DNA of 64,000 nt. Origin: Gammaproteobacteria bacterium. Lineage in GTDB: Bacteria; Pseudomonadota; Gammaproteobacteria; UBA4575. Of the stretch, positions 12,507 to 19,026 are shown piece by piece. The stretch's first letter is position 1. Every line of letters begins with the position of its first letter. Made by a program: the position numbers and the translations under genes. The notes beneath the pieces are model-generated. The model was not told where the DNA came from and did no database searches. It saw only the letters and a list, made by a program, of their open reading frames with translations. The stretch lies in the NCBI GenBank assembly GCA_965222615.1, contig CBDCUI010000008.1:992001-1056000 (forward strand), given 5' to 3'.

Positions 12507-12583
12507 GCGCCTGTAGCTCAGCTGGATAGAGTACCTGGCTTCGAACCAGGTGGTCGGGGGTTCGAATCCCTCCAGGCGCGCCA
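12507..12583 (+). tRNA. tRNA-Arg(TCG)
   Basis: GCGCCTG/CAGGCGC acceptor, CCTGG-CTTCGAA-CCAGG, GGGGGTTCGAATCCCTC, CCA; TATACT at 12493-12498. Confidence 0.95.
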
Positions 12584-13330: not shown

Positions 13331-13444
13331 ATGCAGACAAGAAATAATTCAATATTAAGAAAGCTACTCATACCGGAAATTATATTATTTTTAATTGGTA
13401 TCTCGGGATTTTTAATACAGTTTTTTAATATATTTCCAGGCTAA
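13331..13444 (+). CDS. Small single-TM peptide (37 aa)
   Basis: GGAGGT SD at 13319-13324; MQTRNNSILRKLLIPEIILFLIGISGFLIQFFNIFPG. Confidence 0.55.
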   Translation: MQTRNNSILRKLLIPEIILFLIGISGFLIQFFNIFPG

Positions 13445-14000
13445 TTAATTGATCTGAAAGTTTAAAGCATTTACTAATTGCTAAAATCGTAATGGCAGTT
13501 CAATTATTGTCAGTGAACAATTAAATTTTTCTCTCTAATGTAAATTTCAAAAGCACGCGTATTAGTATGTGTACTTTATTTATAGCTAGTTTTTACTGGA
13601 AAATTTAAAAATATACTGGTGCATCTTCAAAGAATATTTCCATTGATTTTAGTAAGCGAGATTAATGAAGTTAGTTAGCTTATTTAGAAAAATTAGGCGA
13701 TGAATCAAACTAAATTTTACAAATAGTTTTTTAACAAAAATACTACATTAAATTATCCAGTTGTCACTGAAACATATAACAAGTATTAAGAACTACATGA
13801 TAATTAACAAAAATATAAATATATATATTTCAGAATGTTATATGACTATTTTTATTAAGTCTCAAAGTTTTATTAAACATTTGTTATCTGGTTCATTTTT
13901 TTAATAAAAAAGCAATTTTTGCTTTGGAAATATTCGGTGTGATGTTAAAGTACCTGCTTCATTAAATAAGTGATAGCTTTTAAAGAGGGAGGATTATTTA

Positions 14001-14252
14001 ATGAGTGAAGAGAAATCACAAAGTGAATCTAGAAGAAGGTTTTTAAAAACCACTGGCAAATTTGCTATCTATACACCACCTGCATTGTTTTTAATGAGTA
14101 AAGCCAATGCGAATCACAGCGACTTGTATAAATCTGTCAAGCCAAATGGCATACGTCGTGGTAAACGTAATGGCCAACGCAGAAGCTATGGGCGTCGTAG
14201 ACGTTATGGCCGACGCGGGTTAAGGAGACGACTTAGAAGGTTCTTCTCTTAG
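14001..14252 (+). CDS. Putative RiPP precursor / Tat-like leader peptide with Arg-rich tail
   Basis: Strong SD GGGAGG; SRRRFLK, YTPPAL, ANA; 16 Arg in last 34 aa; C-terminal Ser. Confidence 0.75.
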   Translation: MSEEKSQSESRRRFLKTTGKFAIYTPPALFLMSKANANHSDLYKSVKPNGIRRGKRNGQRRSYGRRRRYGRRGLRRRLRRFFS

Positions 14253-14440
14253 AAAAAGTCATATCTAGATTTTATCTATAGAATCAAATCATATTTGGTG
14301 CCAAAACAAGAGTTTAGCGCCCCTTCCATATACAAATTTTAAAGCGCTGATCTAAAGGGGGCTATCTTTTCCCCTTTTTGTATAAATATCCGCTAACCTA
14401 TTGAATAGAGTTCAATAAAATATTTTGTCAAACATTACTC

Positions 14441-15634
14441 ATGTCTAGCCAGCTAAGCTCAGTATTTCCTTTGCCTAATGATTCAATTAGCACATATCTA
14501 ATTGATAATGAACTTATCGTGTTTGATGCTCGTTCTAGACAGCTAGTGCGTCTAAATGGGACAGCAACTCAAATCTGGAAGATGCATGAGAATAATATAA
14601 CTACAGATGAAATAGCCTCTGAATTATCAGCGATCTATGGATTAAAAAAAACAGAGTTACTCCCTGATATCCGCATGGCTTTAAACGAATGGCATGTAAT
14701 GGGTATGTTGGGGAATGAACATATACCAACTGTAGAAGAGGAAGCTGATGTTCTTGATCATTTGAAACAAACAACTGTAAATTATCAAGATAGACAAGGT
14801 TTTATTAAAGTAAAAGAATTTACATTTTTAGATACGGGATTTGTTATAGAAGCATCAAGTGATGAGCTTAAAAAAATTTTATTGCCATTATTTTCGCATT
14901 TGGGAAAAATAGAAAGTAAAACCACTCATAAAATAAAAGTTATAGAAGAAAATTCTAGTTATGTTGTGTTAGATGGCGATATGGAATTAGGGTGTACTAA
15001 TAGACTTGAAGAAATTGCACCGATAGTCAATGCACATGTGTTGGTAGTAGGTTTTTTAGAGGTGGACTGTCTTTCAGTTTTTCATTCAGGTGTGATATAT
15101 GATGAAACTGGAGTAGTGTTATTAAGTGCAGGAAGTGGTAGTGGTAAGTCAACATTAACTGCTGCATTGATGTGTGCCGGGAAAACTTTTTTCACAGACG
15201 AGTTAGCTATTCTTACACACGATAAAAAAATACGCCCTGCACCTGGTTGTGTTGGCTTAAAAGAAGGCTCATGGAACGTAATTGAAGAATTCTATCCAAG
15301 CATTTTTAAATTACCTACTCATATGCGTCAGGACGATAAGGTAGTTAAATATGTCCCACCAGCTTCACTGCCTTCTGTCGAGCAACTGAAACATGGAGAG
15401 AAGGTGCGAGCGATAGTATTCCCAAATTATTCACCTGACTGCCAATCAGCATTGGTGGAGATTTCTGCTGTAGATGCCCTGGTGAAAATAACCGATGCAG
15501 GTTATCACACAAACCAAACTTTGAATCATGAATCTGTAGCTAAATTGGTTGATTGGATTGTGGATATACCTGCCTATGAGTTAAAAGTAAACGACCTTAA
15601 AGAAGCGGTTGATCTCGTATCAAAATTATTTTAA
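14441..15634 (+). CDS. PqqD/RRE domain fused to HPr-kinase-like P-loop kinase
   Basis: N-term ELIVFD..LNGTATQIW..EIASEL..Y..DI...L (RRE pattern); C-term FHSG..GSGSGKSTLTAAL..TDE. Confidence 0.85.
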   Translation: MSSQLSSVFPLPNDSISTYLIDNELIVFDARSRQLVRLNGTATQIWKMHENNITTDEIASELSAIYGLKKTELLPDIRMALNEWHVMGMLGNEHIPTVEEEADVLDHLKQTTVNYQDRQGFIKVKEFTFLDTGFVIEASSDELKKILLPLFSHLGKIESKTTHKIKVIEENSSYVVLDGDMELGCTNRLEEIAPIVNAHVLVVGFLEVDCLSVFHSGVIYDETGVVLLSAGSGSGKSTLTAALMCAGKTFFTDELAILTHDKKIRPAPGCVGLKEGSWNVIEEFYPSIFKLPTHMRQDDKVVKYVPPASLPSVEQLKHGEKVRAIVFPNYSPDCQSALVEISAVDALVKITDAGYHTNQTLNHESVAKLVDWIVDIPAYELKVNDLKEAVDLVSKLF

Positions 15635-15639
15635 GTAAT

Positions 15640-16680
15640 ATGAGTTATCACGAATATCGTTTTATTACGTCTACAGTATCTCCGTTTATTTCAGCTGAGG
15701 AATTAGTAAAGCAGATTAAATCAAATGAACCACTGAACTGGGAAGTGGTAGCAGATATTGCAGGCACTCATTCAATCATTCAAGCGCTATACCCAGCATT
15801 TATTGAAAAAGATGTTGTAGGTTATATTCCAAATGAATTTCTGGATTATGCACAACATTTAAGTGAACTAAACCAAGATCGTAATCGAATGATGAAGGCA
15901 CAGCTGATTGAGGCTGTGTCTATTATTAACAAGTCTGGAATAAAACCCCTATTGATGAAAGGCGCAGCACATCTCATACTCGATACATTTTCGAGGACTT
16001 CTGATCGATTATTAACAGATTTGGATATCCTAGTTCCTGCAGATGAAATCAAGCGCATTAGCGAAGCATTTATTGAAGCTGGCTATACATTTTACGAAGA
16101 AAAGATTGATTTTATAGAAACCCACCATCACTACCCTCCATTAATCAAGCAAGGTGAATGTGCAATGATTGAGTTGCATCGAGAGTTAATGTTTAGTGAG
16201 CAGCAACATATATTTCCAACAAAACGTGCGTGGGAAAATACTATTGATATTACGTTGTCTGGGAATGCTCAAGCTAAAGTACTCAATCCAACCTATAGAG
16301 TGTTTCTTAGTTTCTTGCATAATAGTTTGGTTGACTCTCTTTATCTAAAAGGCTACGTTGAAATTCGACAATTGCACGAACTGGCTAGAACTCAGTTTGT
16401 ATATTCTCCCGATATAGATTGGGGAGCAATGCAAAGCTATGCGCACGAAAAAAATGTTTCTAAACAACTAGACGCTAATTTATATGCGGCTAGTAAGTTT
16501 ATGGGTATTCCAGAATTTATGGAGTTTATCAACAATAATGTAATAAGTGCTGTATTACATTACTACAGAGTTTGTTTAAAGCTTAAATATAGTTGGTTTG
16601 AAACCTTGGATGCTAAGCTATATAGAAGAAAAAAACGCATGCGTTCCAGAACTAATCTGCCATCTCACGAAACTGTATGA
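15640..16680 (+). CDS. Nucleotidyltransferase family protein (NTP_transf_5-like)
   Basis: LLMKGAA..R...DLDILV..IELH. Confidence 0.85.
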   Translation: MSYHEYRFITSTVSPFISAEELVKQIKSNEPLNWEVVADIAGTHSIIQALYPAFIEKDVVGYIPNEFLDYAQHLSELNQDRNRMMKAQLIEAVSIINKSGIKPLLMKGAAHLILDTFSRTSDRLLTDLDILVPADEIKRISEAFIEAGYTFYEEKIDFIETHHHYPPLIKQGECAMIELHRELMFSEQQHIFPTKRAWENTIDITLSGNAQAKVLNPTYRVFLSFLHNSLVDSLYLKGYVEIRQLHELARTQFVYSPDIDWGAMQSYAHEKNVSKQLDANLYAASKFMGIPEFMEFINNNVISAVLHYYRVCLKLKYSWFETLDAKLYRRKKRMRSRTNLPSHETV

Positions 16681-16709: not shown

Positions 16710-17168
16710 ATGAAAACTAAGGCAATAACAAATACACATTATTTTTTCTTTTTTTTAAGTATTTTTCTCGTTGCATGTAGTGACACCTCTGAGTTGAAGC
16801 CTTTTACTAGTGATGGGTGTTCTCTTTTTCCAGATGGTTCTTTAATTAGTAAAAAAGATTGGTGCGAATGTTGTTTTCAACATGACTTAGCCTATTGGCG
16901 TGGAGGTACTGAGAAAGAACGCGAAATCGCAGATGCTAAGTTGAAAGCATGTGTATATGAGAAAACCGGTGATGAGACCCTAGCAAAAATTATGTATGAC
17001 GGGGTGCGTCTTGGCGGTAGTCCTTATTTTTATAATTGGTATCGTTGGGGATATGGCTGGTCTTATCAGAGGAAGTATCAAGCATTAACAGATGTTGAGT
17101 TAAAGCAAGTAACAAGACTTATAGAAGAGCACCAAATAAGCAGCATAAAATATTGCCAAACTTATTGA
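16710..17168 (+). CDS. Lipoprotein with secreted PLA2-like motif
   Basis: LVAC lipobox; DGCS, CCFQHDLAY, AD..L..C. Confidence 0.7.
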   Translation: MKTKAITNTHYFFFFLSIFLVACSDTSELKPFTSDGCSLFPDGSLISKKDWCECCFQHDLAYWRGGTEKEREIADAKLKACVYEKTGDETLAKIMYDGVRLGGSPYFYNWYRWGYGWSYQRKYQALTDVELKQVTRLIEEHQISSIKYCQTY

Positions 17169-17214: not shown

Positions 17215-17805
17215 ATGCCAACTGAACGAGAGCATGCCACGCTACAATTCATCGCAGATTATATACTCAGACACCGCAAGGCGCCCCTACTAACGGAAAT
17301 TGCTAAGGGTTTGGGCATTCAGTCTAAGGGCGTTGTACACCGATATTTATCCGCATTAGAAGAGCAAGGCTATATTCGCCGTTATCAAAAGCATCGGGGT
17401 ATAGAATTGATCGACTATCCCGATTACGACGAATTGCCGTTGTTGGGGCGCATTGCTGCAGGTAAACCCATTGAAGCAATTGAAGATCGTGAGTTGATTA
17501 GTTTTGCACATTTGCTAGGTGGCCCCAATCGCTATGTGTTGCAAGTTAAAGGTCTTTCTATGATTGACGAGGGCATTCGCAGTGGCGACCTTGTGGTAAT
17601 CGAACAATCTAATACAGCGCGTAACAACCAAATTGTGGTGGCATTGATCGATAACCACGAAGCTACTTTAAAAAGAATTAAATTTCTAAATAGAGACGTG
17701 ATTCGTTTGATTCCTGCAAATAAAAATATGCAACCTAAAAACTATTCAGCTGATCGCGTCACGATACAAGGGGTATTGGTTGGTCAAGTGAGAGTGTATT
17801 CATAG
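17215..17805 (+). CDS. lexA: LexA repressor
   Basis: wHTH, IAAG cleavage site, GLSM Ser, TLKR Lys. Confidence 0.93.
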   Translation: MPTEREHATLQFIADYILRHRKAPLLTEIAKGLGIQSKGVVHRYLSALEEQGYIRRYQKHRGIELIDYPDYDELPLLGRIAAGKPIEAIEDRELISFAHLLGGPNRYVLQVKGLSMIDEGIRSGDLVVIEQSNTARNNQIVVALIDNHEATLKRIKFLNRDVIRLIPANKNMQPKNYSADRVTIQGVLVGQVRVYS

Positions 17806-17808
17806 CAC

Positions 17809-19026
17809 ATGAAGCGTTGGCCGCGTGCAGTTATTTTTATCGACATGGATGCCTTTTTTGCTAGTGTCGAACAAAATTCACGACCTGAATTACGTGGAAA
17901 GCCAATCGGTATTACTAATGGTCTTACCGGCACCTGTTTTATTACTTGTTCGTACGAAGCAAGAAGGTATGGAATAAAAACTGGTATGCGGCTTAAAGAA
18001 GCACGTAGTTTATGTCCACATGTGCAACAAATTCCTGCAAGAGCAGAATTATATGCCGAAGTATCTACACGCATTATGTCGGCATTGCAGTCAGTTACTC
18101 CTGATATCGAAATATTTTCAGTTGATGAAGCTTTTCTTGATGTCACTCATTGTCAGGGTATTTATAAAAATCCTATGCATGCAGCCGAACTTGCTAAACA
18201 AATTGTTGAAAAGGCGGGTGGAGTAACCTGTAGTATAGGCATTAGCGGTGATAAAACCACAGCAAAGTATGCAGCTAAAACTAAAAAACCTGGAGGGCTA
18301 ATATCCGTGCCGCCTTGGAAGGCGCGTGACTTTTTACAAGATGTACCTGTTACTGAATTATGTGGAATTGCTAGAGGCATAGGGGAATTTCTTAATGATA
18401 GAAAAATCTATGTCTGTGGCGACATGATTAAACTTCCAATTGGTGAGCTTGCGGGGCGATTTGGTAATTTAGGTCGACGTATTTGGTATATGGCACAAGG
18501 TTTAGATCCAGAGCCTATAAAGCAAACTATAGCTGCACCGAAATCAATTGGACATGGGAAAATAATGCCGCCTAACACAAGAAGTCCTAATGTATTAAAA
18601 ACTTATTTACATCATATGAGTGAAAAAGTTGCAGCGCGTTTGCGTAAACATGCATTTGAGGCACAATGTTTTTTTGTTGGATTCCGTACTAGCCATAAAT
18701 GGTTGGCTGATAAATTTCGAGTGGAAGAGCCTACTGATGACGGACGAGAAATTAGAATGGTTGCAGAAAAGATACTTGGAGTTTGGAAAGGCGAGGGCGT
18801 GTTTCAAGTACAGATTACGGCGCTTGATCTGCGTCCACGCGGGAATCAACTGTCTTTTTTTAATATTGTAGATGAACAGCAGCAATGTCTAAATCAAGCG
18901 ATGGACCAAATCAATGAGCGCTTTGGTGAATTTGCAATTACCTCTGCTACATTGTTGAACCGTTCTGAGATGCCTAATGTGATATCTCCTTCATGGAAGC
19001 CGGTTGGGCATCGAAGGACAGTATAA
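17809..19026 (+). CDS. dinB: Y-family DNA polymerase IV
   Basis: IDMDAFFASVE, SYEARRYG, SVDEAF. Confidence 0.9.
   Translation: MKRWPRAVIFIDMDAFFASVEQNSRPELRGKPIGITNGLTGTCFITCSYEARRYGIKTGMRLKEARSLCPHVQQIPARAELYAEVSTRIMSALQSVTPDIEIFSVDEAFLDVTHCQGIYKNPMHAAELAKQIVEKAGGVTCSIGISGDKTTAKYAAKTKKPGGLISVPPWKARDFLQDVPVTELCGIARGIGEFLNDRKIYVCGDMIKLPIGELAGRFGNLGRRIWYMAQGLDPEPIKQTIAAPKSIGHGKIMPPNTRSPNVLKTYLHHMSEKVAARLRKHAFEAQCFFVGFRTSHKWLADKFRVEEPTDDGREIRMVAEKILGVWKGEGVFQVQITALDLRPRGNQLSFFNIVDEQQQCLNQAMDQINERFGEFAITSATLLNRSEMPNVISPSWKPVGHRRTV

Follow-up and report, generated by a model that had tools for sequence, protein, structure and literature searches.

A candidate non-lasso, leader-guided peptide modification cassette whose leader has the layout of a Tat export signal

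We analyzed a 64,000-nt stretch of DNA from a Gammaproteobacteria bacterium (UBA4575; contig CBDCUI010000008.1, positions 992,001 to 1,056,000), referred to below as the window, and focused on a three-gene cassette within it. The cassette encodes a small arginine-rich peptide; a fusion protein that joins a PqqD-like recognition element for peptides made on the ribosome and modified after translation (RiPPs; RiPP recognition element, RRE) to an HprK-like kinase; and a nucleotidyltransferase (NTase) of the NTP_transf_5 family (PF14907). A gap of 188 nt separates the peptide gene from the fusion gene. The genes and their features, in window positions, are as follows.

13985..13993 (+): Shine-Dalgarno-like, purine-rich sequence GAGGGAGGA, ending 7 nt 5′ of the peptide ATG (sequence reading)
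14001..14252 (+): precursor-like peptide gene, an open reading frame (ORF) of 83 aa with a conserved leader and then a variable Arg-rich part
14028..14048 (+): twin-arginine consensus S10-R-R-R-F-L-K16 (family conservation; tatA/B/C in the genome)
14070..14087 (+): Y24-T-P-P-A-L29, with Y-x-x-P-x-L spacing, within the hydrophobic region of the signal (family conservation)
14103..14111 (+): A35-N-A37, candidate signal peptidase I site (sequence reading)
14133..14135 (+): S45, candidate acceptor, aligning with a family Ser/Thr about 19–21 residues past the Tyr
14148..14249 (+): Arg-rich tail (residues 50–83; 16 Arg in 34 residues, counted in the ORF), ending RRFFS with C-terminal S83
14357..14383 (+): terminator-like hairpin and T-run between peptide and enzyme genes, a weak call (consensus scan: 3 sites versus 2.2 expected)
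14441..15634 (+): fusion, 397 aa, with an RRE/PqqD domain at about residues 10–92 and a phosphoenolpyruvate carboxykinase (PEPCK)/HprK-like P-loop kinase body at about residues 120–397
15137..15154 (+): P-loop G233-S-G-K-S-T238, within GSGSGKST at about residues 232–239 (alignment of 18 homologues)
15640..16680 (+): NTP_transf_5 nucleotidyltransferase, 346 aa, starting 5 nt after the fusion stop
16018..16026 (+): NTase D127-x-D129 (invariant in 17 sequences)

The original prediction, drawn from the letters of this DNA, had described an 83-aa ORF with SRRRFLK, YTPPAL and ANA elements, a final stretch of 34 residues that includes 16 Arg, and Ser as its last residue, followed by a PqqD/RRE-HprK-like fusion and, 5 nt on, an NTP_transf_5 enzyme. 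Each peptide feature can be read in the sequence, and profile searches bear out the two flanking enzyme domains: Pfam PqqD matched fusion residues 24–86 at 34.2 bits (cut-off, 23.4), and Pfam NTP_transf_5 matched the NTase at 103.6 bits (cut-off, 31.2). By sequence search of the PDB, the closest solved relatives of the N-terminal domain were lasso B1 proteins (TbiB1, 1e-9; 9x8z, 8e-8; TfuB1, 7e-7), and HprK 3tqf was found with the fusion at 0.005. An AlphaFold2 model of the fusion (predicted local distance difference test, pLDDT, 88.9; predicted template modelling score, pTM, 0.85) gave the first 90 residues an RRE layout of three strands and three helices, and Foldseek superposed this domain on TbiB1 from its leader complex (5v1u_B) with a target template modelling (TM) score of 0.88 and a root-mean-square deviation of 1.1 Å. 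The rest of the model matched PEP carboxykinase at E = 4e-7; its match to HprK 3tqf was weaker (E = 1.3e-3). The P-loop and the predicted PEPCK-like fold of the kinase part fit the HprK/P type; within it, G233, G235, K236, S237 and T238, together with H215, D253 and K274, are invariant in 18 homologues.

The NTase likewise retains its signature residues. K107, R123, D127, D129, G148, H163, H180, H227 and R243 are invariant in 17 sequences, and in terms of the Pol-beta-type motif G-[GS]...D-x-D, both K107-G108 and D127-x-D129 are conserved. Its AlphaFold2 model reached a pLDDT of 92.2. A phmmer search of locus ORFs with the window NTase gave 60 hits, mostly directly downstream of the kinase match, at fused and unfused loci alike.

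The peptide proved to belong to a large family defined by its N terminus. Small ORFs just upstream of the fusion genes of relatives carry a leader near-identical to that of the window peptide and an unrelated remainder, and a profile built from 22 such peptides and searched against 1.84 billion representative proteins returned 1381 representative clusters at E≤1e-3, of which 260 also pass E≤1e-10; their lengths all fall within 52–171 aa. Family membership rests on the N-terminal 35–40 residues (RR-F-L-K-x-A-G-K-F-A-x-Y-T-P-P-A), and the C-terminal parts are hypervariable. In the 22-peptide alignment R11, R12, A22, Y24 and P27 never vary, and G19 and T25 almost never do. Of the best 150 clusters, 149 could be anchored by the motif; their consensus is S-R-R-x-F-L-K-x-A-G-K-F-A-x-Y-T-P-P-A, with RR conserved in 148–149, F in 148, L in 130, K in 128, Y in 148, T in 143, the first P in 148 and the second in 149. 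Mean pairwise identity was 0.56 over the 28-residue leader versus 0.14 over the core, in a set of 43 peptides that includes two junk frames (from loci L030 and L040). Leaders stay about 70% alike even where the fusion proteins are only 24–32% identical to that of the window; by sequence comparison, the leader is more conserved than the fusion enzyme. The family has no Pfam or NCBIfam model: neither database matched the window peptide, no Pfam domain was found in the 120 clusters examined, and source names for these were 'hypothetical protein' or blank, except for a single cluster labeled 'formiminotetrahydrofolate cyclodeaminase'.

Two signals overlap in this conserved leader. As the original prediction had noted, Y-x-x-P-x-L is the motif of lasso leaders that RREs recognize; its exact spacing is kept in the leader, beside an enzyme whose N-terminal domain is nearest to lasso B1 RREs. 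At the same time the window peptide has the layout of a twin-arginine translocation (Tat) signal, running from SRRRFLK through TTGKFAIYTPPALFLM to ANA, and the Tat consensus that had been noted in this one ORF turned out to be conserved family-wide. In the alignment, small residues recur in relatives at the position matching A35-N-A37. The genome encodes a complete translocase, with TatC at 228.9 bits, two TatA/B/E genes adjoining, and tatA, tatB and tatC all present. The NCBIfam model TAT_signal_seq gave no match to the window peptide at E≤0.01, and NCBIfam Tat-signal matches to the relatives tested were sub-threshold only. The other Tat-type signals found in the genome have ordinary Ala/Gly-rich hydrophobic regions and lack the Y-T-P-P motif. 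A complex prediction of fusion residues 1–100 with peptide residues 1–40, run without controls, scored 0.02 against a mark of 0.32, a value that counts neither for nor against binding.

Beyond the leader, the cores diverge into recurring types. Across genera of the order we found cationic tails ending ILRRFFS, CNQGVGAPVVNDGC...GNPG, CNNGFGNGDQC...NNAENSL, GGGWLQDLL and C...LFCKY; beyond the order, cores include 16 consecutive Arg (L113), GGYKP repeats (L107), FKGG repeats (L024) and His-rich runs (L125). Net charge is at least +5 in 69 of the 149 representatives and at most -3 in 12, a spread that makes a polycationic nature one theme among several; the earlier treatment of a polycationic core as the defining property does not hold for the family. 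Neither does the C-terminal Ser generalize. It occurs in 22 of 149 representatives (12 of 149 end in [FWLI][SG]), and amphipathic tails like ...R[FL][FW]S are found in one subfamily, which includes the window peptide. A Ser or Thr about 19–21 residues past the Tyr is far commoner: at Y+19 it is Ser in 117 and Thr in 10, for 127 of 149. At least two Cys occur in 30 of 149. The mature peptides might bind polyanions or act as antimicrobials, both of which are guesses.

A variant of the leader was seen at four further kinase loci (L073, from an Actinomycetota metagenome-assembled genome, and L142, L148 and L149, from metagenome contigs). Each encodes one to four Cys-rich proteins of 138–162 aa with the leader RRR(M/L)(L/M)K…(A/V)W(S/V)APV(L/I), in which W-x-A-P replaces Y-T-P-P.

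Peptides and enzymes are linked at several scales. Neighborhood mining for RRxFL-YxPP peptides, suggested at the outset as a check, was productive: a leader hidden Markov model (HMM) found a peptide in 36 of 54 fused-locus rows and, among the 45 rows whose upstream DNA extends for 500 nt or more, in 34; both counts include the duplicate pairs L013/L019, L014/L020, L015/L021 and probably L036/L123. Most of these peptides lie on the same strand, 90–500 nt upstream of the fusion. Across 56 genomes of the window's order (one family, 11 genera), the fusion is present in 7 and the peptides in 8, namely the same 7 and genome G011; the other 48 have neither. The cassette of G011 was probably cut by the assembly, because a partial NTP_transf_5 match runs into its contig end. 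One genus of 15 genomes has the fusion in 2 and peptides in 3. The counts within the order are not independent, because the genomes are kin. We therefore also consider 400 genomes sampled evenly across the class, in which a subset of candidates per genome was scored, so that counts are floors. Here peptides at E≤1e-4 occur in at least 10 of 399 other genomes; 9 of these 10 match the fusion alignment, 8 of them on the same contig within about 1.3 kb. The fusion alignment also matches 65 peptide-free genomes of the class, mostly through the kinase half alone, which is the unfused HprK_rel_A type. A Pfam scan of 82 neighboring ORFs from 11 related loci showed that only the peptide, the fusion and the NTase recur in the 7 fused cassettes, and the same scan found no shared cyclase, peptidase or transporter among those 7.

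Two relatives carry damaged genes. At L016–L018 (G005:C1:2153312-2154413) the fusion lies in three pieces (query residues 8–254, 246–318 and 314–374, the last with an in-frame TAA); that genome has two intact leader-peptide genes in tandem just upstream of the broken fusion and two more elsewhere. At L012/L186 (G022:C107) a peptide gene lies by the fusion on the opposite strand, its match containing one in-frame TAG, and a second, intact peptide copy is found on another contig of G022.

The cassette had been called an orphan, a description that no longer fits: the genome (G000) encodes three more leader peptides outside the window.

C8:587557-587808 (+): second leader peptide
C8:420027-420290 (+): third leader peptide
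C9:433490-433720 (-): fourth leader peptide

These copies share the leader and differ in their cores, one being Gly/Ser/Thr-rich and ending CGHGTLADLFCKYF, another of the CNQGVGAPVVNDGC... type and another of the CNNGFGNGDQC... type. Because the genome has one fusion, one NTase and four leader peptides, one enzyme pair probably serves several of its peptides; in the route proposed below it would serve all four.

Given a lasso-type RRE and a leader with Y24, P27 and L29 in place, we asked whether the cassette could be a lasso system. Lasso precursors have a Thr at the penultimate position of the leader and an Asp/Glu acceptor at core position 7–9. Here N36 precedes A37, and neither D nor E occupies positions 7–9 of the core NHSDLYKSV, in keeping with the first reading of the core as lacking a lasso pattern. 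That reading had also found no cyclase, leader peptidase or ABC exporter nearby, and domain searches agree, with no Asn_synthase, Transglut_core3 or ABC exporter in the window between 9000 and 22000. A genome-wide search likewise sustains the claim that the cassette is not lasso. The four full Asn_synthase proteins of the genome all lie outside the window and pass the asparagine synthase model TIGR01536, one being a NAGGN amidotransferase (916.6 bits; cut-off, 570.1), and no protein in the genome reached the lasso-cyclase cut-offs (NF033535, at most 281 versus 525; NF033561, at most 67 versus 300). The single Transglut_core3 match (30.8 bits) lies on another contig, in a protein of 260 aa that looks secreted and has neither an RRE nor a cyclase as a neighbor, and no lasso B2 peptidase context was found in the genome. 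Nor does the genome hold a second lasso-type RRE: its only other PqqD (C8:615523-627502) adjoins a PqqE-like radical SAM gene in a set of the pyrroloquinoline quinone (PQQ) type. By sequence reading, that set also holds PqqB/C-like genes and a quinoprotein-like dehydrogenase. No lasso genes were seen near any of the 7 fused cassettes examined. By these sequence searches, the cassette is non-lasso.

We favor, with moderate confidence, the reading that the cassette is a compact, non-lasso, leader-guided peptide modification system whose leader doubles as a Tat signal. It is RiPP-like in that a conserved leader and a variable core stand beside an RRE-bearing enzyme. From what is directly observed (genes, domains, leader and core conservation, co-occurrence, adjacency, the lack of lasso enzymes and the Tat genes), we infer the rest, namely how the leader is bound, which two reactions follow and at which residue, in what sequence the steps run, how the peptide is exported and what it does once mature, with the chemistry modeled on the enzymes of lasso relatives. 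The peptide would be made in the cytoplasm, where the RRE domain of the fusion would bind YTPPAL within the hydrophobic region of the signal. The tethered HprK-like kinase would then phosphorylate a hydroxyl residue of the peptide, for which S45, corresponding to the family Ser about 20 residues past the Tyr, is the best candidate; this conserved Ser is ranked first because a tethered active site would need its target at a set distance from the RRE motif. The C-terminal Ser may be an alternative or additional site in the RRFFS subfamily. Next, the NTP_transf_5 enzyme would add a sugar or nucleotide to the phosphate, by analogy with its pseudomycoidin relative, and the released peptide would be exported by TatABC and cut at ANA. 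The C-terminal Ser was also considered as the family-wide acceptor and rejected on its frequency of 22 in 149; it is possible for the RRFFS-type subfamily only.

Several observations weigh against this modification-and-export reading. No leader peptide was found near 11 of the 45 fused loci with enough upstream DNA. Three of the four leader peptides of the genome stand alone amid housekeeping genes, far from the enzymes, a position that would also fit an independent family of secreted peptides. S45 of the window peptide lies at Y+21, two residues farther from the Tyr than in most relatives, and the rarity of a C-terminal Ser is unlike the C-terminal acceptor of paeninodin. The enzymes are also distant from their namesakes. 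In the profile check proposed for the cassette, PqqD and NTP_transf_5 passed their cut-offs and the HprK-related kinase did not, as NCBIfam HprK_rel_A (TIGR04352) matched fusion residues 213–396 (model positions 98–280) at 90.7 bits versus a cut-off of 200. Pfam Hpr_kinase_C gave no match to the window fusion at E≤0.01, and in the relative L036 the match was weak and sub-threshold (22.5 versus 33.3). Foldseek with the NTase model found no match at E≤1e-3, the best (4e-3) being weak and of Pol-beta type only; with no close solved relative, the fold allows no chemistry to be read from it.

A related arrangement is the HPr-rel-A system of NCBIfam, composed of the TIGR04352 kinase A and the TIGR04353 PqqD 'peptide chaperone'. 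The two share the order PqqD, kinase, NTP_transf_5, and both have a twin-arginine protein encoded just upstream. They differ in that PqqD and kinase form one protein here, and in that the window proteins fall below both cut-offs (PqqD_rel_X, TIGR04353, 21.5 bits versus 35); a classical member, L075, scores 342.2 on TIGR04352. The upstream gene differs as well, encoding a 220–300 aa protein in HPr-rel-A and a 50–170 aa YTPPA-leader peptide in the family of the window. In a broader form of our proposal, Tat signals would act as RiPP leaders both in this family and across the wider HPr-rel-A group: the RRE, as a chaperone that holds the signal, would offer a conserved Ser just past it to a tethered kinase, the NTase would then build a sugar or nucleotide linked through the phosphate, and release of the cargo to TatABC would follow only afterwards. 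We regard this extension as possible and hold it tentatively. At the unfused HprK_rel_A loci L075, L071, L067, L080 and L078, a 218–302 aa twin-arginine protein is encoded directly upstream of a small PqqD gene; several of these proteins share a C.SPS…C.G.SPG.WK-like stretch, and none has a Pfam or NCBIfam family.

The main rival shares with the preferred reading an RRE that reads the Tat signal, and departs from it in what follows. The peptides would be ordinary Tat-exported small proteins, and the RRE-kinase and NTase an export gate or quality control: the RRE would hold the signal as redox enzyme maturation protein (REMP) chaperones do, with release governed by short-lived phosphorylation or nucleotidylation and no stably modified product left. 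Such a gate accords with the conserved full Tat consensus and AxA-type site in a genome with tatABC, with the position of the three unlinked peptides, with the several core types whose two Cys recall disulfide-bonded secreted peptides, and with the unfused classical relatives, which have a Tat-signal protein upstream of the PqqD gene and no short peptide. The Ser/Thr just past the signal, however, fits modification of a product as well as it fits a gate; the cassette has no conserved phosphatase or hydrolase; and the lasso relatives of both enzymes leave stable modifications, according to the accessible text of PMC8498205. On balance, we consider a transient gate unlikely.

Still less probable is a non-peptide substrate (a sugar, a lipid or a cell-surface polymer), with a vestigial or regulatory RRE and the peptide a mere neighbor. 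The unfused pairs L075 and L071 do lie amid polysaccharide genes (epimerase, UDP-glucose dehydrogenase, Wzy-like), the fusion has a weak NCBIfam match to a FomB-type phosphonate kinase (18.8 bits), and the only paper found for NTP_transf_5/PF14907 concerns, in its accessible part, phosphonate pathways. Against this, the fused cassettes sit in unrelated neighborhoods with nothing in common but the peptide, fusion and NTase genes, the model shows a complete and confidently predicted RRE fold, Y-x-x-P-x-L is near-invariant, and peptides and enzymes co-occur genome by genome.

Tailoring of a lasso peptide in trans, with cyclase and peptidase genes at another place in the genome, would account for an RRE most like lasso B1 and for kinase and NTase types known from lasso tailoring; it is effectively excluded, as the genome is 99.79% complete, the cyclase, B2 and second-RRE evidence described above all stands against it, and no lasso genes were seen beside the 7 fused cassettes examined. 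That the 83-aa ORF might have stayed open by chance within AT-rich spacer DNA, as its place behind 1.4 kb of ORF-poor DNA and its low-complexity Arg-rich tail might suggest, is refuted by conservation: it has a strong Shine-Dalgarno sequence, 1381 homologous clusters, four paralogues in the genome counting itself and core types conserved across genera.

Returning to the preferred reading of leader-guided modification, three further known systems help to place it. To our knowledge, HPr-kinase-like and NTP_transf_5 enzymes acting on peptides are known only as lasso tailoring enzymes. In the paeninodin pathway an HPr-kinase homologue phosphorylates the C-terminal Ser of the precursor, and a nucleotidyltransferase of the pseudomycoidin pathway attaches one or two hexoses to such a phosphate, as set out in the accessible text of PMC8498205. 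These clusters resemble the cassette: both pair an HPr-kinase-like enzyme with a nucleotidyltransferase, which here too would act on a ribosomally made peptide, and both have a B1-type lasso RRE and a Y-x-x-P-x-L leader. Unlike them, the cassette has no cyclase or B2 peptidase in locus or genome and no ABC exporter at the locus; its RRE is fused to the kinase, whereas theirs is free-standing; its leader is also a Tat signal; and its C-terminal Ser is unconserved.

Tat proofreading chaperones of the TorD, DmsD and NapD class are cytoplasmic binders that hold a Tat signal until the cargo is finished. The fusion would likewise be a cytoplasmic protein that binds a Tat signal peptide, but it has no sequence or fold relation to that class, being a winged-helix RRE-kinase, and its partner is a short peptide rather than a cofactor enzyme. 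A further parallel comes from DUF2282 precursors paired with DUF2063 RREs, which carry Sec signals and for which the main text of PMC12710340 reports no specific RRE-recognized motif. There too a precursor bears an export signal instead of, or besides, a classical leader; the signal of the window peptide, in contrast, is Tat-type with a near-invariant RRE-type motif, and the enzymes are unrelated to those described in that text.

No description of a Tat-leader RRE-kinase system, and no paper on the HPr-rel-A system ('HprK-related kinase'), was found in the literature searched, which lay outside subscription journals. The main texts of PMC7470986 (RRE-Finder) and PMC12710340 contain no kinase, HPr, nucleotidyltransferase or twin-arginine, and their supplements may list such RRE fusions. 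Relative to known systems, the novelty would lie in the enzyme architecture and in the use of a Tat signal as the leader for peptide modification that depends on an RRE. If this is right, the RRE reads a motif embedded in a Tat signal and thereby ties modification to export, a link not described in the literature searched, and HPr-kinase-like and NTP_transf_5 enzymes would define the class for a separate and widespread family of peptides. Should Tat signals indeed act as leaders, the more than 1,300 clusters would represent secreted, phospho-decorated, mostly cationic low-complexity peptides, which would form a new RiPP class and couple maturation to export in a new way. A cassette of three genes is easily moved, which makes the chemistry directly testable.

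The surroundings of the cassette are unrelated to it, comprising FGGY kinase, GDPD, DAO oxidoreductase, tRNA-Arg(TCG), a lipoprotein-like ORF, LexA, Y-family polymerase and MarR genes. The tRNA-Arg(TCG) gene lies at 12507–12583; between it and the peptide gene stretch some 1.4 kb of AT-rich DNA with few ORFs, within which a hydrophobic 37-aa ORF (13331–13444) sits behind an AGGAGG-like site. Origin of the cassette as a tRNA-Arg island was considered; a recent insertion is unlikely because relatives in other genera keep the fusion-NTase-lexA-polymerase synteny. Downstream of the NTase, a 152-aa ORF (16710–17168, +) that begins like a lipoprotein (…FLVAC) and matches no Pfam or NCBIfam model precedes lexA. 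LexA (Peptidase_S24 and LexA_DNA_bind) and, 3 nt later, the Y-family polymerase (IMS and IMS_C) occupy 17215–19026 (+). In the relatives L013/L019 and L015/L021, lexA follows the NTase directly, and the order fusion-NTase-lexA-polymerase is conserved in at least two other genera of the order.

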